From IMG/VR virus record IMGVR_UViG_3300028393_000050: a DNA stretch of 64,000 bases. One strand, 5' to 3'. The position numbers were made by a program, and so were the translations under genes. Under the pieces are notes generated by a model. That model was given only the letters and a program-made list of their open reading frames with translations, had not been told where the DNA came from and made no database searches. The DNA is from an uncultured virus (IMG/VR IMGVR_UViG_3300028393_000050) (Duplodnaviria > Heunggongvirae > Uroviricota > Caudoviricetes). Position 1 is the first letter of the stretch, and every line of letters begins with the position of its first letter. Positions 25,998-60,690 of the stretch are shown here, in pieces.

Positions 25998-27530
25998 ATG
26001 GCGTATTTACGTCCCGGAGTATTTGTTGAAGAAATTGCAACACAGGCTCCCGTTGTAGGAACCGTATCTACTACAGTAGCGGCTTTCTTAGGCCTATCTG
26101 ACAGAGGACCGGTTGTTCCTACCCTAATTAACTCATGGAGCCAGTTTACTGCACAGTATGGTTCATGGGGAACCCGTAACAGCCTTGCTGAAGCGGCTTA
26201 CATGTTTTTTGCAAATGGCGGTAGCCAAGCTTATTTCCAGCGAGTAACTGCTACTGTCGGTAGCCCAGCGACTGCTACTCGTTCATTTAACGACACCACT
26301 TCAGTAACTCCAGTTGCTACTCTTAGGGTAGATGCTAAGAACTATGGTACATGGGGAAACAGCATTTATATTGAAATTACTGCTAGCACTATTTCAACCA
26401 CATACTTTAACTTAAACGTATATTACAACGGTACAACACAGGCTAACGTAGTAGAGCGCTATAACGACGTTACAATGCTTACCACAGATAGCAACTACGT
26501 AGTAAGCACAATTAATAATTCATCTAACTACATTTTTGTAACTGACTTAGTTCCTGCTGACACATTTGAGGCTACTGACAACCCTGCTGTTATTGCGCCA
26601 GCTTCTGCAGCCCTTACTGCAGGTGCTGATGGTACTAAGCCAACTGATACTATTATTGCCGCGGAAGTTACTAAGTTTGATACAGTATCTAACGCTTTGG
26701 TGTTTAACGCCCCTGGTATTACCGCGGCCGCCGATGTCGATGTTATCCTAAACTATGCGTACAACCGTGGTGACGTGTTTGTGGTTATTGACGCTACACA
26801 GGCATCCACTACGTCTGCTGCTCAAATAACTTTGTCTAACGCATACACGGGCGGAACTGCCAGTACGCCTGCTCTTGCATACGGTGCCGTTTACTTCCCC
26901 AACTTAACAATTCCTAGCCCAACTTCTACTGTCCCTGGAGCTACTAAACTCACTTATCCAGGAGCAGCAGTTGTGGCTAAGTACACGACTACTGATACAG
27001 CCAGAGGCGTATTTAAAACTCCAGCTGGTTTAGACGCTCGTTTAGCAAATGTTATATCAGTAGATAAACTTACTAACACTGAGCTAGATAACTTGAACAA
27101 CGCTACGAAGGCAGTTAATGCTATTCGTTATGTGCCAGGTTCTGGAATCGTAGTAATGGGTGGACGTACTCTAAAGCAGGGTTACACAGACCGTTATATC
27201 TCCACTCGTAGAACATTAATCTATTTACGTAAGCAACTTTCTGATTTGACTCAGTATGCGATCTTTGAGCCAAACAATGAAAGACTATGGGACAGCCTAA
27301 GAAACACAGTTGAGGCTACTCTAGTTAGCTTCTGGCAATCAGGCGGTTTGCGTGGTGCAACTCCGGGAGATGCTTTCTTTGTAAAGTGTGACGCAACCAA
27401 TAACACCAGCATTACTATTGCCAATGGTCAAGTAATCATCGAAGTAGGAGTTGCGCTACAGCGTCCTGCTGAATTCGTAGTAATCCGTATTAGCCAGTAC
27501 GACAGTGGCGCTGTCGTAACTATTTCCTAA
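25998..27530 (+). CDS. Contractile tail sheath protein
   Basis: PGVFVEE, GVFK.PAG, RYI..RR, FEPN...LW, PAEFV. Confidence 0.95.
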   Translation: MAYLRPGVFVEEIATQAPVVGTVSTTVAAFLGLSDRGPVVPTLINSWSQFTAQYGSWGTRNSLAEAAYMFFANGGSQAYFQRVTATVGSPATATRSFNDTTSVTPVATLRVDAKNYGTWGNSIYIEITASTISTTYFNLNVYYNGTTQANVVERYNDVTMLTTDSNYVVSTINNSSNYIFVTDLVPADTFEATDNPAVIAPASAALTAGADGTKPTDTIIAAEVTKFDTVSNALVFNAPGITAAADVDVILNYAYNRGDVFVVIDATQASTTSAAQITLSNAYTGGTASTPALAYGAVYFPNLTIPSPTSTVPGATKLTYPGAAVVAKYTTTDTARGVFKTPAGLDARLANVISVDKLTNTELDNLNNATKAVNAIRYVPGSGIVVMGGRTLKQGYTDRYISTRRTLIYLRKQLSDLTQYAIFEPNNERLWDSLRNTVEATLVSFWQSGGLRGATPGDAFFVKCDATNNTSITIANGQVIIEVGVALQRPAEFVVIRISQYDSGAVVTIS

Positions 27531-27545
27531 TAGGAGGAATAATAA

Positions 27546-28172
27546 ATGCCAGCAGTACAAGCAAGCAGCGCTCTATCCCGTTACTCAAAGTTACAGACAG
27601 ACCCATTACGCAATTTTAGGTTCTTGGTTAATTTTAGAGTTACTGGAGACACAAACGGCCCTAACAGCTTTCTTAGCTTTATGGGCGGGTTTACTTCCAT
27701 ATCGGGCCTAAGCATTTCTACTCAGGGTATTCAATACCGAGAAGGTGGAATGAACACTACTCTTCACCAAGTTCCAGGTATGACTTCATTTAACCCAGTA
27801 ACTCTAATGAGAGGTACTATTTTAGGAAATGATGAAGGTATTAAGTGGATGCGTCAGCTTTTTGCTGCTGCATCTGGCGAAGGTGTTCCTGGGGCCGATG
27901 GTACTGGATACCGCTGCCACCTAGACATTTATGTGCTAGACCACCCACTTACTGGTGCACCATTGCTTTCAACAAATGACATTATCAGCAAAAACGCTTA
28001 CAAAATGAAGTTCACTGTACACAACGCTTGGATTAGCCAGCTAAGTTACTCTGACTTAAACGCGTCAGAAAATGGTATTTTGATGGAAACTATTCAACTA
28101 ATTCACGAAGGTTTATCGGTAACTCTAGCTGATTACGGAGCTAGTGTACCGACCACAGAAACATATTCATAA
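27546..28172 (+). CDS. Tail tube protein (T4 gp19-like)
   Basis: DPLRNFRF, GF..ISGL, YREGG, VTL.RG, NAW, L.HEG. Confidence 0.92.
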   Translation: MPAVQASSALSRYSKLQTDPLRNFRFLVNFRVTGDTNGPNSFLSFMGGFTSISGLSISTQGIQYREGGMNTTLHQVPGMTSFNPVTLMRGTILGNDEGIKWMRQLFAAASGEGVPGADGTGYRCHLDIYVLDHPLTGAPLLSTNDIISKNAYKMKFTVHNAWISQLSYSDLNASENGILMETIQLIHEGLSVTLADYGASVPTTETYS

Positions 28173-29145: not shown

Positions 29146-31116
29146 ATGGCAAGTACAGGTGGCGGTTCATTAAAGAGTCGTTTATACGCTGAGCTTAACC
29201 TTGAGCTTGATAAGTTCAATCAAAAGCTTGAGCGTGGAGAAAAGCTATCTAAAAGTGCTGGCGATAACATTAAACGCCTATTATCGGGCAATAAGTCTGG
29301 CGGTAGCGATAGCAAGGGCGCTGCTAGTAGCATGGACTTTAAGCCACCTGCTGCTAAAGACTCTGCTTATCAACAAACTCCTGGTAATCCTGGATACGAT
29401 AAAAACCAACAAAAAACCGATTTAGGTTATGTAAAAGTTCCTGGCCAAGACGGCGCAAGCAGTATGCGTTATGGCGAAATTGGCAAAAACATTGCCTATG
29501 CCACAGGTGCAAGAATGCTTAGCGCATTTAAAACTGACGATTATCTATATAACGATATTTCTCAAAATAGATTTGGGTTTTATAATGGCGCTACAAATCG
29601 AGATGCTGGGTCTGCTTTTGCTGAAAAAATGATGGGCACTAATGCCGGTATTAGCCCTATGGATGCCATCAATTCTATGAACTATGGAAACTCTATTGGC
29701 TTAATGTCAGGTATGCAACAGAAAAAAGGCGTTTATAATTCTGTAACTGGTATAGCAGATATTACTGGTGCCGGTTACGAAGCTGGTATGGGAGCAACTG
29801 CTGCAATTAACCAGGGCTCTAGTGTTAATAAACTTCGTATGATTGGTATTAACGTACGTAACTCTCAAGGTTATCCTAGAGCAGTTGAGGACATTGCCAG
29901 AGATTTGTATAAAATGCTGGACCGTAGCAAAACTGGAAAAAACAAATTAACAACAAAAGACTTAGACCTATCCATGCTTCCAGGTAACTCATTGGACATG
30001 CTATTAAACCAATACTTTAATGGTGACCCTGTACTTCGTCAGGGCATTGTTAACTATTTGTATGAATTTGTTAGCGGTAATAGCCCTGTAACTGGTGCAG
30101 AAACCTCAGTTGGAAGTAGAAACGCAGAATCTTATAGAGGTAAAAATCAAAGTACTGGAGGTGGAGTACCTGGATTTATGCTAGGTAACGATATTGCCTC
30201 GGGGCTCGGTAATTTTAAAAACTTTTTGCACACAATACCTGGCATAGGATTGCTCATGGATATAACTACAGGGGCAGTTACTGCCGGTGGAGCTGTAGCA
30301 GGTATGGGTAAAAATGATGGACCTGGAGTACCTAACTTTGGGCCCCAAGGAAGCTCTTCAGGCGGCCGTGGCGGAGACGGCGGATGGCCTGTACCATCTG
30401 GTTGGGCCGCCCCATTAAACAACGGTATGAACGTTACAAGCCGCTTTGGTGAAGTACGTCATTTAACTATAAAAGGTAAAAAAGTTACTACTCAGCCTCA
30501 CCGTGGTATGGACTTTTCAGCATCTGAAGGCACTGATATTCACGCTTTACATGATGGTACTGTCGTATCAAATGGTTATGGTGCCGAACTTGGTAACTAC
30601 GCTATTATCCAACATGAAGACGGGTATCAGTCTGTCTACGCTCACATGAAAAGCCCAACACATCTAGAGGGTTCAATAAGTGCTGGAGACCTTGTTGGCC
30701 AAGTAGGTATGACTGGTATGGCTACTGGTCCGCACCTTCACTTAGCTATCCAAGACAAAAATGGTAAAGTTTATGACCCACAGCAATACTTTGCTGGAAG
30801 TCTTCCAGGAGAAGATGGGACTACGACTGCTGCCCCAACCGCAACATCTAGTTCTTCTTCCACTAGCGCAAGCTCAAGCACAGATAAATCTCACTCTCTA
30901 TTTAGTACAGCTGGTTCAGGTTCTTTATTTAATAAAAGTATTACTGGCGGTGGTGACGGCCCAGGAGTCCCTAACAGCGGCGCTTCTGGTAGAGGAGGAG
31001 TTATTGTAAACATTAACCTTCCAGCAGGTTCATCGATTAATGAACAAATGTTAGCTAGAGAAGTTAAAAGAATCCTTGACGAAGACGTACGAGTAAAAGG
31101 AGTAGTGAGTAGATAA
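29146..31116 (+). CDS. Tape measure protein with M23 peptidase domain
   Basis: Position; HRGMD, YAHM, TGPHLH motifs. Confidence 0.8.
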   Translation: MASTGGGSLKSRLYAELNLELDKFNQKLERGEKLSKSAGDNIKRLLSGNKSGGSDSKGAASSMDFKPPAAKDSAYQQTPGNPGYDKNQQKTDLGYVKVPGQDGASSMRYGEIGKNIAYATGARMLSAFKTDDYLYNDISQNRFGFYNGATNRDAGSAFAEKMMGTNAGISPMDAINSMNYGNSIGLMSGMQQKKGVYNSVTGIADITGAGYEAGMGATAAINQGSSVNKLRMIGINVRNSQGYPRAVEDIARDLYKMLDRSKTGKNKLTTKDLDLSMLPGNSLDMLLNQYFNGDPVLRQGIVNYLYEFVSGNSPVTGAETSVGSRNAESYRGKNQSTGGGVPGFMLGNDIASGLGNFKNFLHTIPGIGLLMDITTGAVTAGGAVAGMGKNDGPGVPNFGPQGSSSGGRGGDGGWPVPSGWAAPLNNGMNVTSRFGEVRHLTIKGKKVTTQPHRGMDFSASEGTDIHALHDGTVVSNGYGAELGNYAIIQHEDGYQSVYAHMKSPTHLEGSISAGDLVGQVGMTGMATGPHLHLAIQDKNGKVYDPQQYFAGSLPGEDGTTTAAPTATSSSSSTSASSSTDKSHSLFSTAGSGSLFNKSITGGGDGPGVPNSGASGRGGVIVNINLPAGSSINEQMLAREVKRILDEDVRVKGVVSR

Positions 31117-47743: not shown

Positions 47744-48298
47744 ATGTTATTACTCCCTAATAAAAAATACGACGTTATCTTAATGGACCCGCCATGGTCT
47801 TATTATGGCGCACAAGACAAGATGGGGGCTGCTGCAAAGTTTTATCCAACTATGTCGGATGAAGACTTAATAGCTATGGATATCCAAAGTATCCTAAACA
47901 AACCTGGCGTAATTTTTATGTGGGTAACATCGCCTCGCCTGGACTTTGCTATTGATCTTCTACGAGCATGGGGGTTTACATATAGAGGAGTTGCATTTAC
48001 ATGGGTGAAGACTCGCAAGGACGGCCTAACTCCAATCGGCGCGCAAGGCGTCCGCCCGAGCATCGTAAAACCGACAACGGAGTTTGTTATTGTTGCTTCA
48101 ACCGTTACCAAGGGCCGACCCCTACCCCTTGCGGACGAGGGTGTTCCCCATGTGGTTCTTGCTGCAAAGATGGAGCACTCGAGGAAGCCAGACGAAATCC
48201 ACCGAAGGATTGAGCGTCTGTACCCCAGCCAAGCAAAGCTAGAAATGTTTGCTCGTCGTCCTATGGATGGCTGGGATGTTTGGGGCAATGAGATATAA
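47744..48298 (+). CDS. MT-A70-family N6-adenine methyltransferase
   Basis: YDVI..DPPW, HSRKP, LEMFAR...GW..WGNE. Confidence 0.9.
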   Translation: MLLLPNKKYDVILMDPPWSYYGAQDKMGAAAKFYPTMSDEDLIAMDIQSILNKPGVIFMWVTSPRLDFAIDLLRAWGFTYRGVAFTWVKTRKDGLTPIGAQGVRPSIVKPTTEFVIVASTVTKGRPLPLADEGVPHVVLAAKMEHSRKPDEIHRRIERLYPSQAKLEMFARRPMDGWDVWGNEI

Positions 48299-48359: not shown

Positions 48360-48728
48360 TTAAGCCAATGGCTCTTCTTCTTCAGGGGCATCTACATGGT
48401 CTGTTAGTTCTGTTAGGTCACCAAAGTCAGCAAGTTCTGGAGTTTCAGCAGCTGATTCTTCTAGTGCTTGTTTAACTTCAGGGTCATTTGCTGATTGTTT
48501 TGCAACAGCAGCACGGAAACCTTTTTCAATGTCTTCGTTTGAAATACTTGCATCCCAAGCTAGTTGAACACCAAAGTAAATGATGATGGATGAGAATACA
48601 GTAGCAACACCATTTAAAGCACCAAGTAGTGGACCAATGCCTGATGCAGCACCAGTAGCCATACCTGGAATTGCAGCAAACATAACCACACCAATAGTGC
48701 GTTTAATTAAATTACCAAGTGCTTTCAT
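48360..48728 (-). CDS. 2-TM membrane protein (holin-like)
   Basis: Hydrophobic helices, acidic tail, coupled to M23 gene. Confidence 0.65.
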   Translation of the reverse strand: MKALGNLIKRTIGVVMFAAIPGMATGAASGIGPLLGALNGVATVFSSIIIYFGVQLAWDASISNEDIEKGFRAAVAKQSANDPEVKQALEESAAETPELADFGDLTELTDHVDAPEEEEPLA

Positions 48729-49298: not shown

Positions 49299-49463
49299 TT
49301 ATTCGTCCCTATTTCGCAGGGGGAACGTGGCTATCCATATAACCAATGAACCTATGATGCACCAGCCAACTACCGCCTTAGCAGAGCCTTCTAGTACAAC
49401 CCAGGCTACAAACATACCTAAAAGAGTCCATATTTGGCCTATAAGGTCATTTAAAAACTTCAT
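49299..49463 (-). CDS. 54-aa 2-TM protein
   Basis: MKFLNDLIGQIWTLLGMFVAWVVLEGSAKAVVGWCIIGSLVIWIATFPLRNRDE; ATGA overlap. Confidence 0.7.
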   Translation of the reverse strand: MKFLNDLIGQIWTLLGMFVAWVVLEGSAKAVVGWCIIGSLVIWIATFPLRNRDE

Positions 49464-49729
49464 TTTTCTTTCCTTCGGCTAGAACTTGATGAACTTGATG
49501 CTGCACTTGCTGCACTACTGGCAGCCATAGCCGCAGCCTGTGTTGCAACCTGTGTAACAATAATGGCAGAAATAACTACTTTTTGTGCTTTTGCTCGCAC
49601 AGCAGGGGGTAGGTCTGCACCAATATTGCCTAAAGCATTAAATGCGTCTGCTAATCCTTGAAATGCTGCCCCCAACAATGGAATGTTCGCAACTGGATTA
49701 TCGTTGTGAAACTCCTTTGGGGGTATTAT
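49460..49729 (-). CDS. -1 frame extension of PA14 protein (hydrophobic segment + basic tail)
   Basis: Open -1 frame across stop, slippery site and hairpin. Confidence 0.65.
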   Translation of the reverse strand: MIPPKEFHNDNPVANIPLLGAAFQGLADAFNALGNIGADLPPAVRAKAQKVVISAIIVTQVATQAAAMAASSAASAASSSSSSSRRKEK

Positions 49730-51192
49730 TTTAAATTTATTGCAAACAACTGTCTAGGTAAGTATGCACCGTCAGCAAAATACTTTGGGTTATTCTTTTT
49801 TGGTTTACGCTTATCAGCAGCAGTAGGCTTTGGAATGTTTGCTAGGTCTACTTTTGCTTGAACAACTTTGGCTTCTAGGTCGTCTACCTGTTGTACCGCA
49901 GACTCAATAGCAGCAAATGTGCTACTGTACTCGGCTTTTAGGTCACGCAAGTTAGCGTCAGCAACTACTTTGTCATCGCTTCTGTTTTGCCAGTTAGATT
50001 CAGCATTATTCATGACGGACTCTAGAGGAACTAAAATAGTGTGTTTATTTGTTAACGAACTTCCAGCGTATCCATAGGCTGCTTGTTTGCCGTCATAATC
50101 ATCACAAGCATTGCTATAAACCACATTTGCCTGTTCTTCAGCGGCTACTGCCTGAACATAAAGAGCGGTCTTAGCGTTTAGTACAGCAAGCAATGCTGGG
50201 TCTTTAACCAAGTTGGCTACTGCTCCCTGTGTAAAGAATGACGCTGGGGCTACTGCGTAAGAACTACCGCCTAGAGGTTTGTAGTTCAAACTAGAACAAG
50301 CACCGCCACCCCACTCATAGAACCAAGCGTCAATAGCGTAGGACTTTCCACCAGTAAAGGAGAACATGCCTGTAGAGTTTGCTCCACAACCTTTTAGCGA
50401 CCAGTCGTTGATTACTTGAGTTCCGTTGATAGACATGAAGAAACCATCATCAGCAGGAGCCTGAAAGTAAACCTTAGTTGTTGTTGGGTAGGTAATGTAA
50501 CCTTTGTAGTGAAGCATGATGTAATCAGAGCCACAACCTAGAATGTCACCGCCACCCCAGTTAGCATCAATGTTAGCTACAGTCGTTGTCTTACATTTGG
50601 TGTAAACAGTATCTGATTTTTGCGGAGGGTTACCTTTGCTATTAATTCCTGTGTAAACGTCAACAACCAAACCAGCGGCATTTTTACCGCTACCTCCATC
50701 GTTGATTAACTTAGTATCATAGTCAATTTGTGCCTGGTTCATAACAGCTTGAGCATTGTCGCTGTTTTGCTGGGTTAATACGTAAGAATCATAAGTAGAA
50801 TCTACTACATCAGCAGCGGCATTTACTGCGGCTACTGCCTGAGCAACTACTGCTTCAGCAGCTTTAACGTCAGCAAAAGCCACATCATAAGTTGCTTTCT
50901 TACCATTATAGTCAGAGATAGCAATGTCTAAAGCGTCCTGTGCTTCAGTAGCGGCAGTCTGGGCAGAGTTAATAAGGTCAGCTTGAGAGTTAGATGAGTT
51001 ACTCCAACTGTCTAAGTTATCTTGAGCAGTGCTTAACTGATTCTGAAGGTCTTGTACCTTTGCCTGTGCCTCAGCAACTTTTTGGTTATAGTCAGTTGTG
51101 CTATCAGCCATAGCAGGGCTAGACAACCCAAACATAAGAAATAGTGAAGTTGCGGCTACAAATAAAGTAGAGAACTTACGCATTTTTTTCAT
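49726..51192 (-). CDS. Secreted coiled-coil protein with PA14 domain
   Basis: Signal peptide ending AMA-D; ID.NWG, ADDG, VINDW, FYEWGGGA; start refined. Confidence 0.8.
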   Translation of the reverse strand: MKKMRKFSTLFVAATSLFLMFGLSSPAMADSTTDYNQKVAEAQAKVQDLQNQLSTAQDNLDSWSNSSNSQADLINSAQTAATEAQDALDIAISDYNGKKATYDVAFADVKAAEAVVAQAVAAVNAAADVVDSTYDSYVLTQQNSDNAQAVMNQAQIDYDTKLINDGGSGKNAAGLVVDVYTGINSKGNPPQKSDTVYTKCKTTTVANIDANWGGGDILGCGSDYIMLHYKGYITYPTTTKVYFQAPADDGFFMSINGTQVINDWSLKGCGANSTGMFSFTGGKSYAIDAWFYEWGGGACSSLNYKPLGGSSYAVAPASFFTQGAVANLVKDPALLAVLNAKTALYVQAVAAEEQANVVYSNACDDYDGKQAAYGYAGSSLTNKHTILVPLESVMNNAESNWQNRSDDKVVADANLRDLKAEYSSTFAAIESAVQQVDDLEAKVVQAKVDLANIPKPTAADKRKPKKNNPKYFADGAYLPRQLFAINLK

Positions 51193-51472
51193 TGGTTTTT
51201 TCCTTTTCATTTTCAACATTTTTTAAAGATACGGTTTGCTGGAAGGCGGCATTAATTTCATTTAGGCTAAGTTTTCCATCTTCTAGGAAAGCTAAAGCAA
51301 GCAGTTCAACTACTTTAGCTACGGCCATTACACCGCCCATTACAGCGCTAAACCAGATAGGGATTTGGATACCGCTCATAGAGCCTGCGACTGTACCCGC
51401 ACCGATTACGCCCAGTGCTGAGGCTACAAATGTTGCAAGTACGCGCAACATGACATTGCCAAAAAGTTTCAT
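51176..51472 (-). CDS. 2-TM membrane protein, paralogue of 48360-48728
   Basis: MK..GN...R and D..(L/I)S...I...F shared. Confidence 0.7.
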   Translation of the reverse strand: MKLFGNVMLRVLATFVASALGVIGAGTVAGSMSGIQIPIWFSAVMGGVMAVAKVVELLALAFLEDGKLSLNEINAAFQQTVSLKNVENEKEKTNEKNA

Positions 51473-51718: not shown

Positions 51719-52246
51719 ATGAAAAAGTACGTAATTATAGCCAGCATACTTGTAACACTTGCTGGTTGTTCCGCCTCTACAGCAACAGCTGTAGCTCAAA
51801 TTACACAAGAAACAAAGCAACACCAAGTTAAACCATTAACCTTAATTGAGACAGCTAAAGCACACCGCAATACTGCTCAAATGAGGCATGTAGTTAAGTA
51901 TCTGAAAACCCGCGTAGGACGCACATCTTATGTATTTTCAGGTGCCAGTCCCCGTGGATGGGACTGTTCAGGTCTAGTACGCTGGGCCTATGAACGATTC
52001 GGTATAGTATTACCGCACTCGGCAAATGCCCAAGGGCATATTGGAACCCGCGTCTCAAAACCAAAACTTGGAGACATTGTTGTGTTTGCCTATAACGGCA
52101 GCACAAATTTCTATCACGCCGCCATTTACATCGGAAATGGAAAAATCATTAACGCACATCGTGGAGCTCATGCCACGATAATTCAACCGCTTACAGATTA
52201 CAAAAGCGGGCAAATCCGATTTGTCCGTATAGTAAAAACACTGTAA
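51719..52246 (+). CDS. NlpC/P60 peptidoglycan endopeptidase, lipoprotein
   Basis: LAGC lipobox; Y.FSG..P.GWDCSGL, HAAIY.G.G. Confidence 0.9.
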   Translation: MKKYVIIASILVTLAGCSASTATAVAQITQETKQHQVKPLTLIETAKAHRNTAQMRHVVKYLKTRVGRTSYVFSGASPRGWDCSGLVRWAYERFGIVLPHSANAQGHIGTRVSKPKLGDIVVFAYNGSTNFYHAAIYIGNGKIINAHRGAHATIIQPLTDYKSGQIRFVRIVKTL

Positions 52247-52748: not shown

Positions 52749-53300
52749 ATGAAAATACGTGATCAATTCCCAGACCCGTGGGATAAACACAACAATCCAT
52801 ATGACCCATATGGTAAAGCAATTCCAAATCCGCATGACCCTGCGGATATTTATAAGAAATGGCAGAAACCGCCTGCCCCAAAGGTTATTACCATCAATGA
52901 CCTATTTCCAAGCCTAGACCGCTGGTCTATTGGCTGGTCCCCGCTGCTAGAGCAGCTTAAAGAGTTGTCAAATGCTAAGGCAAGTTATCCGCCTTATGAC
53001 ATTATTGACCACAAAGACGATACCACAGTCATCAATGTAGCTGTTGCTGGTTTCGATAAGAAAGAACTATCAATCACAGTAGAAGAACAGGCGTTGAAAA
53101 TTGAAGGTAAAAAGAAAGACAAAGAACAAGAAGGCGAACTCGTTCACAACGGTATCGCTGGACGCGATTTTAAGCTCACTTTTGCCCTTGCTGAATTTTA
53201 CGAAGTAGAGTCAGCCAAGGTAGAAAACGGGCTTTTATCAGTCAAGCTGTTTAAGAATATCCCTGATGAAAAGAAGCCAAAAGTCATTGATATCAAGTAA
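52749..53300 (+). CDS. Small heat shock protein (Hsp20)
   Basis: YPPYDI, AVAGF, GIA.R.F...F.L, A..ENGLL. Confidence 0.92.
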   Translation: MKIRDQFPDPWDKHNNPYDPYGKAIPNPHDPADIYKKWQKPPAPKVITINDLFPSLDRWSIGWSPLLEQLKELSNAKASYPPYDIIDHKDDTTVINVAVAGFDKKELSITVEEQALKIEGKKKDKEQEGELVHNGIAGRDFKLTFALAEFYEVESAKVENGLLSVKLFKNIPDEKKPKVIDIK

Positions 53301-54068: not shown

Positions 54069-54286
54069 TGGGACGCATGGCAGATTTAGACGCAGAGATG
54101 CACGAACTACCTGACAACGCTAAAGACTTTATGCAGGGTTTTGATAGAGGTCGTGCTGAAGGAATTGTTATTGGTCAAGAAGAAGGTGCGGCTATGGAAC
54201 GCGTCCGACTTATTGAGTTATTTGAGAAAAGCGACTCAGCTGCTGCTGGGTGGGTTATTGCCGTTATCAATGGAGAAGCCAATTAG
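54068..54286 (+). CDS. Hypothetical protein
   Basis: TAATG coupling, GGAG RBS. Confidence 0.6.
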   Translation: MGRMADLDAEMHELPDNAKDFMQGFDRGRAEGIVIGQEEGAAMERVRLIELFEKSDSAAAGWVIAVINGEAN

Positions 54287-54725
54287 CCAAATAAATTCTG
54301 GTCTATACTCTAGCGCAACTGATGACTGGGGTACGCCTCAAGCATTGTTTGACGAGTTAAACGATGAATTTAGTTTTACCCTAGATGCCTGTGCTAGCGC
54401 ACATAACTTTAAAGTAAATGTTTATTTTAATGAAAAAATTAATGCGCTAGTGCAGGACTGGGCGGGCATCGTATGGATGAACCCGCCTTACGGTCGTGCT
54501 ATTGGTAAATGGATGAAAAAAGCATTTGAAGAATCTCAAAAAGGTGCTACTGTAGTTTGTTTAGTACCCGCTAGAACCGATACCGCTTGGTGGCATGATT
54601 ATGCTATTAAAGGTGAGATAAGGTTTTTAAGAGGCAGACTAAAGTTTGAACAACCAGGGTTTGTAAAAAATAGTTCAGCACCTTTTCCAAGTGCTATAGT
54701 AATTTTTAAAGGAATTAACTCATGA
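54270..54725 (+). CDS. Phage DNA N6-adenine methyltransferase (Dam-like)
   Basis: W.TP, F.LDAC, WMNPPY, LVPARTDT.WW, GRLKF. Confidence 0.9.
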   Translation: MEKPISQINSGLYSSATDDWGTPQALFDELNDEFSFTLDACASAHNFKVNVYFNEKINALVQDWAGIVWMNPPYGRAIGKWMKKAFEESQKGATVVCLVPARTDTAWWHDYAIKGEIRFLRGRLKFEQPGFVKNSSAPFPSAIVIFKGINS

Positions 54726-54895
54726 ATCAGCACATAACTAAAAAAGAAATTATTGCGATTGTGGGAATAATTTTGGCTATGCTTGGTTCTTTACTATACG
54801 GTTACTTTTTAATCAAAGAAGATAAGCCTAAATCGTGTTGGGATTTATATACAACTGAGAATGAAGCTATTTTGCACTGTGAGGTTCACGACTAA
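54722..54895 (+). CDS. 57-aa single-TM protein
   Basis: Manual translation, overlaps both neighbours. Confidence 0.6.
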   Translation: MNQHITKKEIIAIVGIILAMLGSLLYGYFLIKEDKPKSCWDLYTTENEAILHCEVHD

Positions 54896-55386
54896 TGGGT
54901 GAAAAAGATTTTATTGAAGATATGTTTGGGGAGCTTGATGCGTTTTACCCCGGCAGTAAACGTAAGCGTAAAGAACCAATTGAAAAACCAGTACTTGACA
55001 CAAGCTGGGAAAATGATTACACTGAAAGAACTTTGCCAAATGGTAGCGTGGTCAAGATGTATTTGATCGGTTCATTAGCAAAAGCTTTGTCCCGTCCTAC
55101 AAAAACTATAAGATGGTGGACAGAGAGAGGTACACTACCTATGTCTCCTTACCGACTTCCTTCAACATTTGGAAAAGACGGTCAGGAATATGTCGGTCGT
55201 AGACTGTATAGTAAAGCAATGATAGATTCAATTGTAGAACTTTTTCAAAAAGCTGGACTTTATGAAGAAAATCCTATAGACTGGTCTTTACACCGGAGTT
55301 TTAGCGATAAGATAGCCGAGGCGTGGGAAACAATACGCGCAGAAGAAAACAAACAAACAATAACTAAGGAAAAAAATGCCACTTAA
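54895..55386 (+). CDS. MerR-like HTH protein
   Basis: Y.IG.LAKAL.R..KTIR.W...G.LP...RRLY. Confidence 0.75.
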   Translation: MGEKDFIEDMFGELDAFYPGSKRKRKEPIEKPVLDTSWENDYTERTLPNGSVVKMYLIGSLAKALSRPTKTIRWWTERGTLPMSPYRLPSTFGKDGQEYVGRRLYSKAMIDSIVELFQKAGLYEENPIDWSLHRSFSDKIAEAWETIRAEENKQTITKEKNAT

Positions 55387-60315: not shown

Positions 60316-60690
60316 TTGTCTAACCCGTTTGTCAATTTATTTACAGAACCTGAACCTTGGGAATATCAAGCTAAATGCGGTACGCGTGTTTACAAAGAAG
60401 AAACTAAAGAATACGTAAATGTTTACGACCCCGATCTTTGGTTTCCGCCTAGAGATAAGGCTTTATACAAACCAATAGCTGATAAGGCTAAATCAATTTG
60501 TTTTGGGCGCGATGGCCGACCAGAATGCCCAGTTAGACTTCAATGTTTAATGGCAGCAGATAAACGTGATGAAGTGCACGGCATCATGGGAGGTATGAGT
60601 CACCGTGAAAGAAACGCTTTAAAACGTAAAGCTGAAAAACAAGGAACTACTTTAGAAGAACTTGCTAAAAAATCTAGTAGACATTCCTAA
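60316..60690 (+). CDS. whiB: WhiB-family transcription factor
   Basis: A.C, D.WFP, AK.IC, CPV..QC, GIMGG.S..ER. Confidence 0.88.
   Translation: MSNPFVNLFTEPEPWEYQAKCGTRVYKEETKEYVNVYDPDLWFPPRDKALYKPIADKAKSICFGRDGRPECPVRLQCLMAADKRDEVHGIMGGMSHRERNALKRKAEKQGTTLEELAKKSSRHS

Follow-up and report, generated by a model that had tools for sequence, protein, structure and literature searches.

In Escherichia coli dnaX, the tau/gamma gene, -1 ribosomal frameshifting involves a slippery heptamer with a hairpin ~5-6 nt downstream of it, together with a stimulator upstream that resembles a Shine-Dalgarno sequence. At the end of the major head protein gene of Lactobacillus phage A2, whose host is Gram-positive, ribosomes reportedly (work of Garcia et al. 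from 2004) slip on C_CCA_AAA ahead of a downstream stem-loop. In this study, we analyzed a 64,000-nucleotide stretch of DNA from an uncultured virus of the Caudoviricetes (IMG/VR record IMGVR_UViG_3300028393_000050), the whole of which is called the window below. In it we found an open reading frame (ORF), designated ORF1, whose last two sense codons are very probably, judged by sequence, the site of a conserved programmed -1 ribosomal frameshift. ORF1 is predicted to encode an exported, lectin-like coiled-coil protein with a PA14 domain, and the shift would add a membrane anchor to its C-terminus. A known phage case, the G/GT tail chaperone of lambda type (Xu et al. 2004, via PMC10885494), likewise involves -1 slipping at a heptamer close to the 3' terminus of its gene; as described in PMC10885494, it yields a major short and a minor C-terminally extended product from one mRNA and is conserved across very divergent phages. 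According to the same paper, tail chaperones account for 2397 of the 2476 joined frameshift genes in SEA-PHAGES annotations, so that ORF1 belongs to a gene class outside the usual set. The dnaX site is used as the standard -1 control in another report (10.1101/2025.10.02.679949).

The ORF1 mechanism would be a textbook -1 cassette, with a layout resembling those of G/GT and phage A2. G/GT is a cytoplasmic chaperone encoded in the tail module, whereas ORF1 would encode an exported protein, lies in a cassette with holin-like and endolysin genes, and has an extension that would serve as an anchor. We considered a tail assembly chaperone and rejected it; no PHROG chaperone match was obtained, and ORF1 is on the opposite strand from the sheath and tube genes (25998-28172), ~20 kb away. 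The heptamer attributed to phage A2, C_CCA_AAA, is the one present in 20 of 35 relatives of ORF1, but the A2 product is a capsid component and not an exported or membrane protein, and there is no homology between the two. The dnaX shift shortens the protein, whereas the shift proposed here would lengthen it, and the stop codon abuts the heptamer. The closest functional analog is Ebola virus GP, a glycan-related surface protein: according to PMC5009743, secreted sGP and transmembrane GP are made from one gene in a fixed ratio by a frame change at a fixed site. That mechanism is transcriptional polymerase slippage in an animal RNA virus, whereas the one proposed here is ribosomal and in a DNA phage, and the two systems are unrelated. 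Our literature searches found no paper describing a phage in which frameshifting appends a membrane anchor or concerns a PA14 protein, and PMC6802176, a paper used below for host prediction, does not mention PA14, lectin or frameshift.

The decisive evidence for a programmed event rather than a chance arrangement is its conservation in relatives. A scan of viral contigs with ORF1 yielded 46 loci, 41 of which had 45-93% protein identity; 6 of these 41 ended before the junction of the two frames. In all 35 loci that held the junction, which came from many separate metagenomes, a homolog of the extension was present in the -1 frame and a canonical slippery heptamer was present in the zero frame. 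Three heptamer types occurred, T_TTA_AAA (14 loci; also the form found in the window), C_CCA_AAA (20 loci) and A_AAA_AAA (one locus). The stop codon followed the heptamer directly in 31 loci and after one codon in the other 4 (L035, L037, L038 and L041), which represent the most distant lineages. The TTT and CCC forms were mixed across sequence groups, and none of the 35 loci had an intermediate form, indicating that slipperiness has been maintained via three-base replacements.

In the window, ORF1 ends with ...GCA ATA AAT TTA AAA TAA on the minus strand. A preliminary description of this DNA had pointed to two overlapping heptamers here. Both are present, and the conserved one is T_TTA_AAA; A_AAT_TTA (49738-49732), a formal X_XXY_YYZ sequence, was found among the aligned unique junctions only in the window, L002, L010 and L013, and was rejected as a conserved slip site because so few relatives have it. 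To give the chance background, the 87 ORFs of the window (20,790 codons) contain 119 in-frame X_XXY_YYZ heptamers, and a heptamer combined with a -1 frame that runs at least 40 codons past the stop occurred only in ORF1 and one other ORF. The latter (54895-55386, plus strand) has A_AAA_AAT two codons before its stop and a -1 frame open for 77 codons, which differs from the frame of the next annotated ORF; it is probably a chance occurrence. A sigma-70-like promoter match (TAGACA, 17 nt, TAAAAT; 49756-49728, minus strand) overlaps the slip site. It too is probably due to chance, with 3 sites in the region versus 6.3 expected from shuffles, and it would give no start codon.

An A run is present at the site, and slippage of RNA polymerase on this run, giving a minority of transcripts one base longer or shorter as in Ebola virus GP, would result in the same two proteins; one locus (L034) even has seven A residues. 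This explanation appears extremely unlikely. The run comprises only 4 A in 34 of the 35 loci, and polymerase slippage is known on longer runs; moreover, it would leave unexplained why the A residues are always preceded by TTT or CCC in a strict X_XXY_YYZ pattern, as well as the hairpin at 5-6 nt.

The extension itself reads IIPPKEFHNDNPVANIPLLGAAFQGLADAFNALGNIGADLPPAVRAKAQKVVISAIIVTQVATQAAAMAASSAASAASSSSSSSRRKEK, ending in ...SSSSSSSRRKEK. Its 89 codons, hydrophobic segment, RRKEK end and ATGA overlap with the next start, as claimed in the preliminary description, were all confirmed. The -1 frame is open after the slip from 49729 to 49463 and is closed eight codons before it; in 13 of the 35 loci a -1 stop is located two codons before the re-read codon, such that the zero and -1 frames have only the heptamer in common. 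In the interval from the zero-frame stop to the first TTG, entropy per alignment column was 0.43, 0.27 and 0.87 for the first, second and third -1 codon positions, respectively (29 sequences). Variation is thus concentrated at third positions of the -1 frame, indicating a coding signal upstream of the first possible start. Across the other aligned frameshift lineages, the tail was 63-77% identical to that of the window.

We further aligned contigs from four other runs (X2-X5) to positions 49300-49950. None had a net indel, and X2 and X4 spanned the junction without gaps, which rules out the sequencing indel that had been named as a possible refutation of frameshifting. A variant strain represented by X3 and X5 has a compensated pair of changes, one base out and one in, at 49685/49688. 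Further substitutions in this strain form a block immediately 5' of the heptamer (49738-49761), with the heptamer and the outer stem arms unchanged. Since anchored relatives with the tail in frame exist (see below), a one-base change could in principle produce such a layout, and ORF1 might then be a dead or mis-assembled gene in which a mutation or sequencing error has split an in-frame anchored lectin and the tail is not made. This is scarcely conceivable for a -1 layout that recurs in 35/35 loci from separate metagenomes at 45-93% identity, with the slip site and stem conserved, with a tail that is under coding constraint and 63-77% identical across lineages, and with no net indel in independent assemblies.

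A different interpretation is that two separate genes are present, the extension being a small membrane protein of 72 amino acids (aa) that starts at TTG 49678 or 49675, and the heptamer and hairpin being incidental. TTG or GTG was indeed found at -1 codon 16-18 in 23 of the 35 loci, since the Leu/Val codons of a conserved IP(L/V)(L/V)G motif happen to be of start type, and short proteins of this type are indeed predicted by gene callers (11 of 155 retrieved proteins had no more than 110 aa). However, the first ATG, GTG or TTG of the -1 frame fell anywhere between codon 1 and codon 47 in the 35 loci, and no Shine-Dalgarno sequence preceded the candidate starts. In L013, L014, L018, L020, L021, L028, L030 and L034, the first start was at codon 20-47, inside the most conserved part. 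Independent initiation at TTG 49678, raised earlier as a refutation of frameshifting, also found no support, as this codon is not conserved: a T-to-C change (minus strand) gives CTG in the co-occurring X3/X5 strains. In addition, the third-position periodicity extends upstream of the putative start, where an NP..IP motif aligns with in-frame relatives, and two genes would leave the heptamer in 35/35 loci and a stem built of rare codons unexplained. We therefore regard separate genes as very unlikely.

The preliminary description had placed an extended hairpin 5 nt after the heptamer, and folding of the RNA at 49728-49655 reproduced it with an energy of -22.4 kcal/mol (z = -2.78; 4 of 200 shuffles folded equally well). 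The identical extended architecture was the minimum free energy structure in 30 of 32 unique junctions, and the two exceptions (L037 and L041) formed it in a 60-nt window. As a check of conservation in homologs, an outer helix of 5-10 bp starting 5-6 nt past the heptamer was possible in 31/31 unique junctions, with seven different arm pairs, including CCCCCAA/TTGGGGG, CCCAAC/GTTGGG, CCCAGC/GCTGGG and CCGAA/TTCGG; the inner stems vary between lineages. The 3' arm of the outer helix falls on conserved (Leu/Val)-Gly codons. Of 33 unique junctions, 28 have GGG as this Gly codon, and CCC is used in the 5' arm; both codons are rare in the long ORFs of the phage (7.2% of Gly codons and 5.5% of Pro codons, respectively). 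Folds of the frameshift loci ranged from -11.4 to -28.3 kcal/mol, versus -7.2 to -12.0 kcal/mol for the equivalent stretch of six in-frame relatives, whose best helices had 3-5 bp. No Rfam family was detected in positions 49400-49900. The possibility that the hairpin is an intrinsic terminator was rejected, because it is not followed by a T run on the minus strand and no minus-strand terminator is listed there.

Several observations weigh against this interpretation. The excess of folding energy over dinucleotide shuffles is modest, with a family mean z of -1.55 and 12 of 32 junctions below -2. Formal covariation in a sequence-based alignment was not above controls: four pairs changed on both sides, a number reached by 159 of 500 shuffles, and the covariation score was 0.144 versus 0.146 for a -1 slide. 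Only the percentage of paired cells exceeded the controls (83.9% vs 41.6-63.1%), and RNAalifold on the sequence alignment retained only 4 outer-stem pairs. The compensatory arm changes stem from five distant lineages (L034, L035, L037, L038 and L041), which are out of register in that alignment. The A-site codon here is AAA, and AAG is the most shift-prone in E. coli. As for the products, the signal peptide and transmembrane segment rest on hydropathy and motif reading, and AlphaFold modeled the 89-aa tail as two helices, one of them over residues 42-78, with low confidence (predicted local distance difference test score 54.5). Finally, the codons for RRKEK (CGA AGG AAA GAA AAA; 49460-49480) double as the purine-rich ribosome-binding site of the next gene, as do those at the same place in L001-L041, and for this reason the conservation of RRKEK in this lineage may partly reflect constraint on the RNA. 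With these points considered, the core of the preliminary description, a frameshift that would give released and C-terminally anchored PA14 forms, is still supported by the -1 layout, the heptamer, the hairpin, the coding periodicity and the in-frame relatives.

Under this model of programmed frameshifting, most ribosomes would decode ...TTA AAA and stop at TAA, and removal of the signal peptide from the short product would give a released protein of ~459 aa. A fraction of ribosomes, depending on the slipping efficiency, would stall when the hairpin (49723-49669) reaches the mRNA entrance, the stop codon being the next to be decoded. These ribosomes would slip back by one base on T_TTA_AAA, with re-pairing from UUA to UUU in the P site and from AAA to AAA in the A site, and read 89 more codons. 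The likely stimulators are the stop codon adjoining the heptamer and the hairpin 5 nt downstream. The residues gained in this way would comprise a conserved juxtamembrane helix motif (IPLLG..AFNALGNIGADLPP), then a single transmembrane segment, a linker rich in Ser and Ala, and the basic end RRKEK. Before processing, the resulting long form would have 577 aa; it would be a membrane protein of type I, its lectin stalk outside the cell and its tail in the cytoplasm, and short and long forms might assemble together through their coiled coils. The extension contains a single hydrophobic window (residues 51-70) above the Kyte-Doolittle threshold of 1.6.

The same C-terminal module occurs in frame in other proteins. 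In-frame fusions, whose existence in homologs had been proposed as a check, were found in L042, L050-L058 and P0001-P0005, and the extension aligned over its full length with the tails of L042 and P0001-P0005. L042, which has 39% identity in PA14, is a single frame of 908 codons whose last 80 residues (..AAIPGLAGAVELLNFFGNAGADMSPAKREESKKIVVTAVVAAGVAVQAAAG...SRRIGK) align with the extension. P0001-P0005, which were identified via the extension, have a signal peptide, followed by PA14+fn3, SUEL-like or coiled-coil passengers and, in frame, the tail, and L050-L058 are nine further viral in-frame forms of 230-337 codons. These relatives share with ORF1 the tail, the signal peptide, often a PA14 or SUEL-like lectin passenger and a small neighboring gene with two transmembrane segments (two-TM gene). 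They differ in yielding only the anchored form, and the corresponding position has neither a heptamer nor a strong structure.

A profile of the tail retrieved 598 cluster representatives at E <= 1e-3, including 234 at E <= 1e-10. Among 155 retrieved proteins, 141 were long and carried a 70-90-aa tail at the extreme C-terminus; the rest were eleven proteins of no more than 110 aa, two with slightly longer ends and one ankyrin false positive (P0007). PA14 was present in 16 of 41 scanned tail proteins. The module, which follows a signal peptide and a passenger, can be recognized by the signature ..IP.LG..N.G.D(L/M).P.VR.., then a hydrophobic segment and a basic end. The extension has this signature, and in the window the module is reached only via the -1 frame. 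In one of the retrieved proteins, P0009 (87 aa), the final ~60 residues also occur at the C-terminus of P0011, an in-frame protein of 291 aa, but the N-terminus is unrelated; P0009 could be another frameshifted copy of an anchored lectin from a different lineage, or an assembly error. Three more distant PA14+fn3 proteins (L043, L044 and L045), with threonine runs and Pro/Glu-rich linkers, end in a different in-frame hydrophobic tail (..AVIAAGAVIAVAPVAGASRRR).

The three-part form of the tail, with the motif GAD(L/M)PP, a hydrophobic segment and a basic end, and the fact that a basic cluster terminates 136 of the 141 long proteins, are reminiscent of a sorting signal. If so, the frameshift would be real, but the tail would be cleaved by a sortase-like or other enzyme and the lectin attached to the wall, without a permanent membrane anchor. 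We consider this unlikely. Neither LPXTG nor LAXTG is present in the tail, and no sorting-signal model of NCBIfam or Pfam matched it. The motif and the hydrophobic segment are ~8 charged residues apart, and a Ser/Ala/Gly linker of variable length (~0 to 35 residues) lies between the hydrophobic segment and the basic end, features unlike those of known sorting signals. In general, searches of the tail against Pfam (E <= 0.01), NCBIfam (E <= 0.1) and PHROGs gave no matching model, and a search of ESM Atlas gave no usable match. Nor was there a match in deposited phage genomes, where the low-complexity filter may hide weak ones. The tail profile gave 3 weak matches from 54 candidate stretches in cellular genomes, none of them convincing. 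There is therefore no indication of a host enzyme family acting on the tail.

With regard to the zero-frame protein, ORF1 could start at ATG 51192 (488 codons) or at ATG 51219, the latter giving 497 aa (51219..49726). ATG 51192 is more likely on sequence grounds, as homologs begin at the equivalent Met, directly past the stop of the upstream gene. A basic n-region and a hydrophobic core are common to all homologs, as is an A-x-A site, which was kept in 23 aligned homologs, with A29 invariant. The only hydrophobic window of ORF1 is residues 7-28, and the predicted signal ends in SPAMA/D. The PF07691 match has a score of 26.5 bits, above the gathering cut-off of 24. PA14 domains bind sugars in a calcium-dependent manner via a conserved Asp-Asp motif, and D248 and D249 of the PA14 domain were invariant in the 23 homologs. 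The best match to a solved structure, obtained with the alignment profile, was the PA14 module of RsgI3 (PDB 6qe7, E 6.6e-7). RsgI3 is a membrane-anchored protein that displays PA14 outside the cell for polysaccharide binding; it has an N-terminal anchor, signals to a sigma factor and involves no frameshift, so the likeness is limited to the PA14 fold. The sequences flanking PA14 are coiled-coil-like, with weak matches to the coiled coils of SMC and PI3K p85, and may form a stalk. In a protein search against deposited phages, ORF1 matched only the PA14 domain of a protein from Pelagibacter phage HTVC008M, and no PHROG family matched ORF1 or the extension.

Table 1. Features of the ORF1 locus and of the minus-strand cassette, in coordinates of the window
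Feature	Coordinates	Strand	Basis
ORF1, predicted exported PA14 coiled-coil protein	49726..51192	-	488 aa from ATG 51192; ends TAA 49728-49726
Putative signal-peptide coding part (MKKMRKFSTLFVAATSLFLMFGLSSPAMA, then D)	51106..51192	-	Inferred from hydropathy and A-x-A motif
PA14 domain, residues 211-321 of the 497-aa reading	50257..50589	-	Pfam PF07691, E 6.3e-6
Slippery heptamer T_TTA_AAA, zero frame, abutting the stop	49729..49735	-	Canonical in 35/35 related junctions
Zero-frame stop TAA, adjoining the heptamer	49726..49728	-	Sequence
Stimulatory hairpin (predicted)	49669..49723	-	RNA folding; outer stem CCCCCAA/TTGGGGG; inner stems GGAGTTTC.CAAC / GTTG.GAA.CATTCC
-1 frame extension, 89 codons (IIPPKEF...RRKEK) and stop TGA 49462-49460	49460..49729	-	Matches C-terminal module found in frame elsewhere
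Predicted transmembrane segment (VVISAIIVTQVATQAAAMAA)	49520..49579	-	Kyte-Doolittle 19-residue mean 1.78
54-aa two-TM holin-like gene, ATG overlapping the extension stop (ATGA)	49299..49463	-	Hydropathy, conservation
98-aa two-TM protein, first cassette gene	51176..51472	-	phrog_26427, hydropathy
M23 peptidase, 174 aa, no hydrophobic segment	48728..49252	-	Pfam PF01551, E 2.8e-18; PHROG metallo-endopeptidase and endolysin families
122-aa membrane protein, last cassette gene	48360..48728	-	Hydropathy

ORF1 is located in the only multi-gene minus-strand cassette of the window, in the order 98-aa two-TM protein, ORF1 with its extension, 54-aa two-TM protein, M23 peptidase (the probable endolysin of the cassette) and 122-aa membrane protein (Table 1). 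A search with the cassette DNA found no match in deposited phages. The 54-aa two-TM gene is the most conserved part of the cassette. Its start overlaps the stop of the extension in all 30 loci in which an ATG was found (20 ATGA and 10 TAATG), and in four more loci without an ATG the sequence reads GTGA, which suggests a GTG start. This gene recurs beside in-frame relatives, with 62% identity near L042 and weaker homologs in L043-L045. It is followed by a VanY/PG-binding enzyme in L045 and by M23 in the window.

The overlap with the holin-like gene and the M23 neighbor suggest that the likely field of action of the anchored lectin is the cell envelope late in infection, and gene neighborhood would place it in a lysis or envelope module. 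Its role, whether as a lysis accessory, in wall binding or in surface masking, is a guess, and so is the receptor masking or decoy function suggested in the preliminary description. Translation of the holin-like gene may be coupled to frameshifted ribosomes. A more specific proposal, which we offer as speculation and think rather improbable, is that the frameshift throttles lysis control. Only slipped ribosomes would then reach the two-TM start, so that the anchored lectin and the two-TM protein would be produced in step, the anchored lectin would act as an antiholin-like regulator that senses wall or glycan, and the released form would be a competitor or a mask on neighboring cells. If true, phages of Gram-positive hosts would have a novel way of timing lysis, in which the efficiency of recoding sets the moment. 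An assignment as spanins was rejected, because the signal (SPAMA/D) has no lipobox Cys and because a WhiB gene in the window points to a monoderm host.

The gene content of the window is that of a tailed phage, with genes for terminase, SPP1-type portal, major head protein, sheath, tube, gp25/gp6-like baseplate, DnaB, primase, DNA polymerase and RecA, all on the plus strand. The gene for the WhiB-type transcription factor is located at 60316-60690 (plus strand; PF02467, E 4.5e-11). According to PMC6802176, whiB is restricted to the actinobacterial phylum and serves host prediction, indicating an actinophage with a monoderm, probably actinobacterial, host. The major head protein has 68-70% identity with its counterparts in BRock-group phages of Streptomyces, despite a GC content of ~42% for the window. 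The stretch was found in freshwater and lake metagenomes, and its source is probably an uncultured freshwater myovirus that carries WhiB and infects an actinobacterium.

Some other genes of the window were noted. Divergent from the minus-strand cassette is a gene for an NlpC/P60 peptidase with a lipoprotein signal (LAGC; 51719-52246, plus strand), a second exported wall hydrolase beside M23. A 656-aa protein of the tail module (29146-31116, plus strand) contains a second M23 domain (residues 451-545) and is probably a tail-associated lysin or tape-measure-like protein. The cassette region is flanked by two DNA adenine methyltransferases of different families, MT-A70 and Dam (47744-48298 and 54141-54725, both on the plus strand), and a gene for an HSP20 small heat-shock protein is located at 52749-53300.

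In tailed phages, -1 frameshifting is known almost only from virion assembly genes, such as those for tail chaperones and capsid or tail proteins. At the ORF1 locus, the same device would decide between release and membrane tethering of an exported lectin-like protein, in an arrangement that is kept across a large, globally sampled group of what are probably uncultured freshwater actinophages. For research on recoding, it would provide a conserved bacterial case with three interchangeable heptamers and a stem of rare codons. It also carries a warning for annotation, in that hundreds of short calls of the type 'hypothetical membrane protein' found downstream are probably C-terminal parts of a larger protein. 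More generally, these data point to an uncharacterized family of phage-borne, membrane-anchored lectins beside lysis genes, which may have roles in lysis control, wall binding or phage exclusion.

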